From a virus (lineage: Duplodnaviria > Heunggongvirae > Uroviricota > Caudoviricetes), in the IMG/VR virus record IMGVR_UViG_648276652_000008, positions 1-7,211 of that record: a DNA stretch of 7,211 nucleotides; one strand, written 5' to 3'. Below, in pieces: positions 1,816-7,211 of this stretch; the stretch's first letter is position 1, and each line of letters begins with the position of its first letter. The translations under genes and the position numbers were made by a program. The notes under the pieces were generated by a model. It did not search any database. It saw only the letters and a list, made by a program, of their open reading frames with translations, and was not told the origin of the DNA.

Positions 1816-5493
<3,678 letters not shown>

Positions 5494-5522
<29 letters not shown>

Positions 5523-6000
5523 CCGCAAATTCCTTCATTTTTTCAGCGGACTCAACGCATTTATTAGCCCCCTTCGCAACCAGCTCTTTTAGATAAGCCA
5601 ATTGTCTGCCTGTCAATTCAGGGAATTTTCTTTGCATCGAAAGCGGAATACTGTCCAAAACAGATGCCAGTTCTCCGGATAACCGAGACAGGGCAAAAAT
5701 AGAGAAAGCTGTATCAATCACCTTATGCTCTGCAACCTGGTTTTTTAACCGCTGAGCAATAGCCTGTTCTTCCGTCAGGTTAACCCTGGCCTGAAGTAGC
5801 CTTTCCTCAAGATCATTTTCACCACCTGAAGATTTCTGGTTTTGTTGACGTCGCTCGCGATCTATCTCCAGTACAGTTTTAACGTCATAGAAAACCTCTC
5901 TCCCCCGGCGCTCAACAGGAGGAACACCCCATTTATCAAATGCCTGTACTGAGATACCGATGGAGGAGGCCATGTCGCTTTTATTCAATAAAAAGGCCAC
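5494..6000 (-). CDS. Terminase small subunit, Nu1-like but divergent from lambda Nu1 (phage 21 / NohA-NohD type suspected); about 168 aa
   Basis: C-terminal half ...KVIDTAFSIFALSRLSGELASVLDSIPLSMQRKFPELTGRQ... aligns with lambda Nu1 ...ETAFCTFVLSRIAGEIASILDGLPLSVQRRFPELENRH.... N-terminal LNKSDMASSIGISVQAFDKWGVPPV aligns with the Nu1 winged-HTH VNKKQLADIFGASIRTIQNWQEQGMPV. The 3' end overlaps the A start by 29 nt (26 nt in lambda). Start is uncertain: in-frame GTG at 6000 follows GGAGG and is preferred over the ORF-track TTG at 6024 or the ATG at 5973. Confidence 0.8.
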
Positions 6001-6033
6001 AGCCCCTCCATAAACCACCGGCAAAAAAGCAAT

Positions 6034-6042
6034 ACAACAACC
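6034..6042. promoter_or_regulatory. cosB candidate small-terminase binding element (ACAACAACC), R1-position equivalent
   Basis: 9-bp motif ACAACAACC, about 35 bp upstream of the Nu1-like start; one of three copies spaced like lambda R1/R2/R3. Confidence 0.45.
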
Positions 6043-6099
6043 ACGTTTTTTGTAAAACCCTCTGATTTTACATGCTTTTTCGTATAAGAAAGATCATCA

Positions 6100-6108
6100 G
6101 GTTGTTGT
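6100..6108. promoter_or_regulatory. cosB candidate small-terminase binding element, inverted copy (GGTTGTTGT), R2-position equivalent
   Basis: Exact reverse complement of the 9-bp motif at 6034..6042 and 6159..6167, located between them. Confidence 0.45.
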
Positions 6109-6158
6109 GTTTATTTTTCTTTCTTATTACTTATCAAGTAGATATATCAAACGATAAA

Positions 6159-6167
6159 ACAACAACC
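6159..6167. promoter_or_regulatory. cosB candidate small-terminase binding element (ACAACAACC), R3-position equivalent
   Basis: Second direct copy of ACAACAACC, 39-47 bp from the cohesive-end sequence. An AT-rich stretch with ATCAA cores (about 6110..6155) lies between this copy and the inverted copy, where lambda has the IHF site I1. Confidence 0.45.
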
Positions 6168-6205
6168 ATCACCTCAAAAAAACTCGTAAATAGCGAAAAC
6201 CCGCG

Positions 6206-6217
6206 AGGTCGCCGCCC
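6206..6217 (-). other. cos: cosN cohesive-end sequence (12-nt GGGCGGCGACCT on the minus strand), the lambda-type cos site
   Basis: Plus strand AGGTCGCCGCCC is the reverse complement of the lambda 12-nt cohesive end. Flanking bases (minus strand GGGCGGCGACCTCGCGGGTTTTCGCTATTTA) match the lambda left terminus for about 31 nt before diverging. Confidence 0.85.
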
Positions 6218-6249
6218 CGTAGCCTGCCGGATCACCGGAAAGGACCCGC
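6218..6249 (-). other. Conserved lambda right-terminus segment adjoining cosN (expected to contain cosQ)
   Basis: Minus strand GCGGGTCCTTTCCGGTGATCCGGCAGGCTACG matches the last ~32 nt of the lambda right end as recalled (GCGGGTCCTTTCCGGTGATCCGACAGGTTACG) with 2 mismatches; similarity is lost beyond about 6250. Confidence 0.5.
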
Positions 6250-6391
6250 AAAACCGAGAATAAGTATCAATACTATTTGTGATTTGAATGATGCACATCA
6301 TTGAAACGCCATTCATCCATATACCAGCAGCATTCGGTGTTGCACTTCGTAACTCTGTGACTACGGTTATAAAAGCATTGGCAACTTTTGC

Positions 6392-6438
6392 CACCGGCAA
6401 GTCTTCAATGGATTTCCCCTGCCGGTTTTTTATTTTCG
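6392..6438 (+). terminator. Weak hairpin plus T-tract (possible intrinsic terminator on plus strand)
   Basis: ACCGGCA / TGCCGGT 7-bp stem with a ~20-nt loop, followed by TTTTTTATTTT. Stem is short and loop long, so this is weak. Confidence 0.2.
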
Positions 6439-6524
6439 TCGATGCATAACATTGCATTTACATCAATAGCAGCTATTGTCATTAGTATGTTGCATCGATG
6501 CATGGGTGGTATTGGCGGTCTTCG

Positions 6525-6560
6525 CCGACCGGTTCTGTGTAGCTCCCTATGACCGGTTTT
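6525..6560 (+). terminator. Weak hairpin plus T-tract (possible intrinsic terminator on plus strand)
   Basis: Self-complementary ACCGGT copies around 6528..6533 and 6550..6555 can pair across an ~18-nt loop, followed by TTTTTTATTT. Confidence 0.2.
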
Positions 6561-6562
6561 TT

Positions 6563-6599
6563 ATTTCTAAGATTACAGAAGCCCTTCACTGTATGAAGG
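6563..6599. repeat. Perfect 16-bp inverted repeat with 5-bp spacer (TTACAGAAGCCCTTCA ctgta TGAAGGGCTTCTGTAA)
   Basis: Read directly: arms 6563..6578 and 6584..6599 are exact reverse complements. No clean U-tract follows on either strand (plus: AACTCTTCTTACTT; minus: AATCTTAGAAATAAAAAACC). Confidence 0.6.
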
Positions 6600-6777
6600 G
6601 CTTCTGTAACTCTTCTTACTTAGTAATTTTCGCACCTTCCGGTATTTCCATGAGTTGAGAAATCCTCATACTATCCGACAATAATCATCAATATACGATA
6701 AAGACATCTGACCAGATTGCAGTATTAAAAGCACTCATGCAGACTACGCCCCTCATATCATATACAAGGGGATACTG

Positions 6778-7188
6778 ATGGCTCAGGTTGCCATTTTTAA
6801 AGAAATATTTGATCAAGTGCGGAAAGATTTAAACTGTGACCGGTTTTACTCTGAACTAAAACGCCACAATGTCTCACATTACATTTACTATTTAGCCACA
6901 GGTAATATTCACATTGTATTTGAGAGCGATAACACGGTGTTAATAAAAGGTTTCCATGATGTTATTCATGTTAGCTTTTGCAGAGACACGCGACTTATAG
7001 AAACTTACCTTCATAAGTTGAAATCAAGAGAAATCACATTTCATGAATACAGGGTAAATCTGGCTAAAGCTGGAGTTTTCCGATGGGTTACAAATATCCA
7101 CGAACACAAAAGATATTACTATACCTTTGACAACTCATTATTGTTTACCGAAAGCATCCAGAACACGACTCAAATTTTTCCACGCTAA
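6778..7188 (+). CDS. ybcV: DUF1398 family protein (YbcV/YdfO-like prophage accessory protein), 136 aa
   Basis: ATG at 6778 preceded by AAGGGGA at the right spacing; clean ORF with stop at 7186..7188. Translation [47 protein letters not shown]...[24 protein letters not shown] matches my recollection of E. coli DLP12 YbcV / Qin YdfO. Symbol is from memory, not a search. Confidence 0.75.
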
Positions 7189-7211
7189 ACCATAACGTCC
7201 GGTTTGATCCG

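Follow-up and report, generated by a model that had tools for sequence, protein, structure and literature searches.

The open reading frame (ORF) at positions 6778 to 7188 of the window, i.e., the whole 7,211-nt stretch of viral DNA that was analyzed, is by sequence comparison an ortholog of lambdap78 of phage lambda and of YbcV/YdfO of Escherichia coli. We consider it to be a prophage accessory (moron-type) gene, with a probability of roughly 0.8. The arrangement was already known, and the finding adds little: the reference genome of lambda and E. coli K-12 already have the gene on record, as well as its family, structure, and placement. Its relevance lies elsewhere: carried by lambda and by at least 55% of the complete E. 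coli genomes, kept under purifying selection, and encoding an orphan fold in the PDB, the gene is still without a known function.

Identity of the gene

The ORF lies on the plus strand and encodes 136 amino acids plus a stop codon, which falls inside the range. No start codon occurs between the upstream in-frame stop and its ATG, which is preceded, at a distance of 5 nt, by the Shine-Dalgarno sequence AAGGGGA (6766 to 6772, plus strand; read from the sequence), where the orthologs have GGAAGG. The Pfam profile DUF1398 (PF07166) matched the translated protein with an E value of 9.8e-43 and a score of 145.4 bits (cut-off, 22), and the alignment covered profile positions 1 to 119 of 119 and residues 8 to 126 of the protein. 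A run of 136 codons in DNA of 35.5% GC, together with a family match at an E value of 1e-42, shows that this is not a chance ORF. The protein was 76% identical to YdfO (PDB 2HH8; E = 3e-65, all 136 residues aligned) and 84% identical both to lambdap78 (136/136 residues aligned) and to YbcV of the cryptic prophage DLP12. An identical protein, RefSeq WP_000079499.1, is encoded at matching coordinates in a prophage of the bovine E. coli strain EC43, which matched the window at 99.9% over positions 6000 to 7211.

An earlier note on this DNA, made from its letters alone, had described a DUF1398 (YbcV/YdfO-like) gene with a Shine-Dalgarno sequence of its own and had taken it for a member of a known family without an established function, not a new system. 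The Pfam search that the earlier note proposed as a check confirmed the family, the Shine-Dalgarno sequence is present as given above, and the rest of that description holds as well.

Placement beside cos and relation to bor

The window contains a lambda-type head module on the minus strand, consisting of genes for head decoration, an S49 protease/scaffold, portal, W, terminase A, and Nu1. Terminase A (3597 to 5528, minus strand) has GpA ATPase and nuclease domains according to Pfam, and the small terminase subunit Nu1 (5494 to 6024, minus strand; the RefSeq start corresponds to window position 6000) matched Phage_Nu1 with an E value of 2e-21. The late head operon starts, after cos, with Nu1. 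At the other end of the module, within the first ~210 bases of the window, 168 of the 172 mismatches to the EC43 prophage were found; the segment from 1 to 212 is a mosaic junction at the head decoration/major capsid end.

The cosN site was located on the minus strand at 6206 to 6217, where the 12-base cohesive end of lambda, GGGCGGCGACCT, occurs with 0 mismatches and as the sole exact match in the window. It lies ~190 bp upstream of Nu1 and 560 bp from the ATG of the DUF1398 gene, an interval that contains no annotated gene in the near-identical EC43 prophage. Two further ORFs were seen around cos. One of 53 codons (6288 to 6449, plus strand), between cos and a hairpin described below, corresponds to the hypothetical protein WP_157777103.1 of strain 442/2 (L005 2791 to 2949) and is unannotated in EC43. 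The other, of 107 codons (6134 to 6457, minus strand), was not taken as a gene: it matched neither Pfam nor PHROG, and because it runs across cosN it would be cut in virion DNA, so that it is probably not a gene.

The DUF1398 gene is thus placed as the earlier note had it, beside cos and on the strand opposite to the terminase and head genes. The accompanying statement that this is the position of bor in lambda did not hold, since the slot is that of lambda's own DUF1398 gene (lambdap78, complement of 47045 to 47452 in NC_001416/J02459). The order in lambda is Rz, bor (complement), the DUF1398 gene (complement), a ybcW-like gene, a ylcI-like ORF, cos, and Nu1. The window gene and lambdap78 therefore share the slot between cos and the lysis genes, the antisense orientation, a downstream bor, and an upstream region of ~85 bp, whereas the ylcI-like and ybcW-like genes that lambda carries between cos and its DUF1398 gene are both missing from the window. 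In EC43, a spacer of 224 bp separates the DUF1398 stop codon from bor, its immediate neighbor on that strand, and the lysis genes come after bor on the other strand. With that spacing, bor of the matching prophage lies outside the window. The DUF1398 gene has not replaced bor and is no stand-in for it. The arrangement in DLP12 (nohD, ylcI ybcW, ybcV borD, lysis genes) mirrors that of the window and its continuation in EC43.

Among 10 loci surveyed, one of them with a different small-terminase family (DUF1441), the DUF1398 gene was found between the small terminase and the lysis genes and antisense to both in every case (10/10), and bor adjoined it in five. The DUF1398 gene thus appears as the constant occupant of the slot and bor as an optional neighbor. 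The other neighbors also vary: ylcI/ynfO (DUF3950) lies upstream on the same strand in 7 of the 10 loci, directly upstream (~57 bp) in 4 of those, and a ybcW-type gene is divergently upstream in 4 of the 10. Neither is present in loci of the window type. In Qin, ydfO follows ynfO (DUF3950) by 57 bp on the same strand, and the gene downstream is gnsB, not bor.

The recurrent proximity of bor suggests that the two genes could form an operon in which the DUF1398 protein works with Bor, e.g., by helping or regulating the lipoprotein. In EC43, A2, lambda, DLP12, and O157 strain 2571, bor lies 224 to 291 bp downstream on the same strand. In the EC43 prophage, the spacer before bor contains no terminator-like site, and a terminator-like hairpin followed by a T run (GCTGCCCAT-CAAT-ATGGGCAGT; L001 10716 to 10737) is situated directly after bor, so that cotranscription is possible where both genes are present. 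A functional partnership is nevertheless quite unlikely, given that bor is not the neighbor in 5 of the 10 loci, gnsB, IS3, or lysis genes coming directly after the DUF1398 gene instead; that DUF1398 proteins are also found in Flavobacteriia at sites with no Bor gene nearby; and that the DUF1398 protein is cytoplasmic, as opposed to the outer-membrane location of the Bor lipoprotein. The two proteins are also unrelated. Lambda bor resembles the DUF1398 gene in occupying the same intermodule gap with an orientation antisense to the late operon, and is expressed in lysogens according to work cited in PMC7067206, but its product is a 97-residue outer-membrane lipoprotein with a lipobox. The N terminus of the window protein contains no lipobox, and tblastn searches of the window with Bor of lambda, DLP12, and EC43 returned only noise (E above 1), so that membership in the Bor family was rejected.

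An exchangeable cassette under purifying selection

Comparison with related prophages revealed that the DUF1398 gene is part of a cassette that is present in some genomes and absent from others. The prophage of strain 442/2 has Nu1 and cos in common with the window up to position 6609, then continues with unrelated small genes, and lacks both the DUF1398 gene and bor. In strain A2, a DUF1398-bor cassette (90% identical) is joined to a different terminase, with homology starting near cos. The cassette is therefore inserted between modules, as expected of a moron. Its base composition is also unlike that of the neighboring phage genes, with 35.5% GC in the DUF1398 gene compared with 53 to 60% across the head genes (terminase A through D) and 51% in the lysin gene. 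As for a promoter and terminator of its own, the region before the gene holds only chance-level sigma-70-like matches, and in EC43 the first terminator-like site downstream of it comes after bor.

Pairwise comparisons of five copies, including those of the decayed prophages DLP12 and Qin, yielded dN/dS values of 0.12 to 0.36 at dS values of 0.05 to 0.74. The gene is under purifying selection, in decayed prophages too. The C-terminal repeat of the protein is the most constrained part (omega, 0.04 to 0.16). Residues 45 to 86, the most diverged segment between the window protein and lambdap78, gave omega values of 0.11 to 0.72, which indicate relaxed constraint and, being never above 1, no diversifying selection in that segment. 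The AT-richness, the purifying selection, the absence from a sister prophage, and the dispensability of the ortholog for lytic growth of lambda (see below) fit a moron gene, and the accessory character suggested in the earlier note is supported by the presence or absence of the cassette, its low GC content, and the selection acting on it.

At least 3,007 of 5,426 complete E. coli genomes (at least 55%) carry a DUF1398 copy as detected by megablast, and in at least 3,002 genomes the match extends over 80% or more of the gene at 80 to 100% nucleotide identity. The allele of the window (at least 99% identity) was found in 11 records. Only 43 phage records contain the gene, nearly all of them lambda relatives of E. 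coli. One record of another name, MW057783.1 (Campylobacter phage CJLB-4, 48,361 bp), has a YbcV gene at 46965 to 47372 that scores as lambda's does against the window protein; the coordinates of this gene and the length of the genome are lambda-like, and it seems that lambda DNA was submitted here under a different name.

The absence of a known phenotype and the dispensability for lytic growth would also be expected of a decaying remnant without current function. We regard such decay as extremely improbable: the copies examined have an uninterrupted frame of 136 codons, coverage of 80% or more is retained in the at least 3,002 genomes mentioned above, dN/dS stays at 0.12 to 0.36 even where dS reaches 0.74, and conservation extends to the upstream block and the Shine-Dalgarno sequence.

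Upstream region

An upstream leader or promoter region of ~85 bp (6693 to 6777, plus strand) can be aligned among the window, lambda, DLP12, and Qin, although the genes beyond it differ among the four. Pairwise identities over the upstream 90 nt were 67 to 74% between lineages, with an invariant block that reads GACCAGATTG...TGCA.ACTACGC.CCCTC.TATCA. In lambda, DLP12, and Qin, the block includes GGTCAGACC, followed by a GATAAT hexamer at about -46. The former is the core of the boxes recovered by SELEX with PdhR for ybcV/ybcW and ynfO/ydfO (PMC7660256), and ybcV of the decayed prophage DLP12 combines such a site with PdhR-dependent mRNA (PMC7660256). The window differs from lambda in having neither element upstream of its gene: in both the window and strain A2, CATCTGACC and ACTCAT replace GGTCAGACC and GATAAT. 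The counterpart of the PdhR box in the window, AAGACATCTGACCAGAT (6701 to 6717, plus strand), is degenerate, with CAT in place of GGT in the left half-site; it was identified by sequence comparison with the boxes upstream of ybcV and ydfO. Since the box and the hexamer are both altered, regulation of the window allele may differ from that of its orthologs, and the allele may have escaped PdhR control.

A promoter scan recorded a weak sigma-70-like match, TTGAGA-16-GACAAT (9/12), at 6655 to 6682 on the plus strand as a candidate promoter. The scan found 2 sites upstream of the gene against 3.8 expected by chance from shuffled sequence, so that the match is no evidence of function; no convincing sigma-70 promoter could be called in silico upstream of the window gene.

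Farther upstream, a strong 16-bp hairpin (6573 to 6609, assigned to neither strand) has a predicted energy of -28.6 kcal/mol (z = -7.2) and a terminator-like score on the plus strand. On its left side, the exchangeable DUF1398(+bor) cassette is bounded by this hairpin, the homology to 442/2 stopping at 6609. A hairpin is also present upstream of the DUF1398 genes of lambda and DLP12, at a similar distance; its core (CTT..CTGTATGAAG) is shared with that of the window, whereas its stem differs in a compensated manner. The hairpin may act as a plus-strand terminator or an insulator, or it may mark a recombination boundary. An Rfam search of positions 5900 to 7211 returned no match.

Protein fold and distant homologs

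The window protein (16.4 kDa; pI, 8.9; GRAVY, -0.34) has no predicted membrane segment, the highest 19-residue Kyte-Doolittle mean being 0.68, and its N terminus is unlike a signal peptide. The YdfO homolog (2HH8) is soluble, and its structure was solved by solution NMR. Structure prediction, another check proposed in the earlier note, depended on the depth of the alignment: AlphaFold2 gave a pLDDT of 46 with a shallow alignment of close homologs and a pLDDT of 89.6 (pTM, 0.82) with an alignment of 61 sequences from E. coli, other Enterobacterales (24 to 34% identity), and Flavobacteriia (~18 to 20%). The confident model has a YdfO-like fold, built as an internal duplication of a helix-helix-strand-strand-strand unit. 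No relatives of this fold beyond YdfO were found in the PDB.

Seven residues (L27, Y35, G99, V100, W103, Y114, and E125) are invariant in the 61 sequences from the three lineages, all of them present in the window protein, and R112 is nearly invariant among the enterobacterial members. Most of the conserved residues lie on beta-strands of the model, where their placement would be compatible with a binding surface.

Distant homologs are chromosomal single genes in Flavobacteriia and other Enterobacterales. They have no conserved neighbors, so that genomic context gives no functional lead. In Muricauda, one of them has an HNH nuclease gene and a HicAB toxin-antitoxin pair as neighbors; in Pseudocitrobacter, another follows an aryl-polyene-type cluster; and in E. 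coli, a third is next to IS66. The Muricauda and E. coli contexts, together with the accessory slot beside bor, the orientation antisense to the late genes, and the variable presence of the cassette, are consistent with a single-gene antiphage or superinfection-exclusion factor supplied by the prophage. Such a role is unlikely in our assessment. The window protein matched no model of PADLOC-DB 2.0 at E values up to 1 (NCBIfam searches likewise returned only noise), a published defense phenotype was not found, and the neighborhoods of the distant homologs are not consistently defense islands. Lambda itself carries a DUF1398 gene, yet exclusion of phages through this region is not known from lambda lysogens. 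It would be reasonable to include the gene when accessory genes of prophages are screened for phage exclusion or for phenotypes in the host.

Expression of orthologs and proposed role

Published data on the orthologs provide clues about when the gene is used. Transcripts of ybcV can be measured in K-12, at a level that mutation of pdhR reduces 10-fold (PMC7660256). Expression of the T4 protein MotB, which alters H-NS-dependent repression, raises ybcV and ybcW more than 1,000-fold (PMC7827196). Upregulation has also been reported for ydfO in ionic liquid (117-fold by quantitative PCR; PMC4077768) and for ybcV in a sabinene-tolerant strain (PMC7181518). Lambdap78 was nonessential for lytic growth and plaque formation of lambda in a CRISPR interference study (PMC10695390). 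For the paralog YcgX, a survey published in 2025 on hypothetical proteins of E. coli arrived at no functional inference (PMC12356324). By analogy with these orthologs, we infer that the window copy is expressed from the prophage; the statements on regulation and on dispensability for lytic growth are likewise taken from the orthologs.

We favor an explanation in which the DUF1398 gene is of the moron type and has a constant place in lambdoid prophages, with cos/small terminase on one side and the lysis genes on the other, and is transcribed opposite to the late operon. The AT-rich cassette would be largely silent in the lysogen, probably through H-NS, and host factors or stress would switch it on via a weak, activator-dependent promoter within the ~200 bp upstream. 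Its product would be a small, soluble, cytoplasmic binding module for a protein, a nucleic acid, or a small ligand. It would be neither an enzyme nor part of the virion, and it would presumably benefit the lysogen without taking part in phage assembly. Any particular biochemical role can be assigned only with low confidence.

A more specific version holds that the protein is a conditionally expressed effector of lysogenic conversion, binding a host target and thereby altering physiology or blocking competing phages. This is a speculative and rather unlikely proposal. The aromatic and charged residues Y35, W103, R112, Y114, and E125 on the strands would then bind host nucleic acid, protein, or a metabolite, and in the first of these two cases the stress or carbon physiology of the host would be reprogrammed in a manner tied to control by PdhR and H-NS. 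If true, it would provide a function for one of the last unexplained genes of lambda.

Annotations attached to the gene

Several public labels on the DUF1398 gene are without evidential support. PHROG 413 is named "head protein" and placed in the category "head and packaging," a label also found on the RefSeq lambda genome (NC_001416.1, 47045 to 47452) and several other phage records, and older records call the same lambda gene a "putative envelope protein." These labels are what would speak for a structural or morphogenetic phage protein, which is very improbable. The late operon lies on the other strand, the lambda ortholog is nonessential as judged by CRISPR interference, and the gene is kept under purifying selection in the cryptic prophages DLP12 and Qin, both of which have lost the head genes. 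The protein has no structural similarity to capsid proteins, and some homologs reside on chromosomes in nonphage contexts. "Head protein" was rejected on this evidence, and "putative envelope protein" was rejected for a soluble protein with neither a signal peptide nor a membrane segment. Both look like annotation by neighborhood.

The third label, oxidative-stress resistance, is equally unsupported. Resistance upon overexpression of YdfO is stated in PMC4077768 with a citation of Wang et al. (2010), and was not accepted here: the cited source names YfdK, YfdO, and YfdS of CPS-53, whereas its main text (PMC3105296) contains no mention of "ydfO." The statement appears to result from a confusion of gene names with YfdO of prophage CPS-53.
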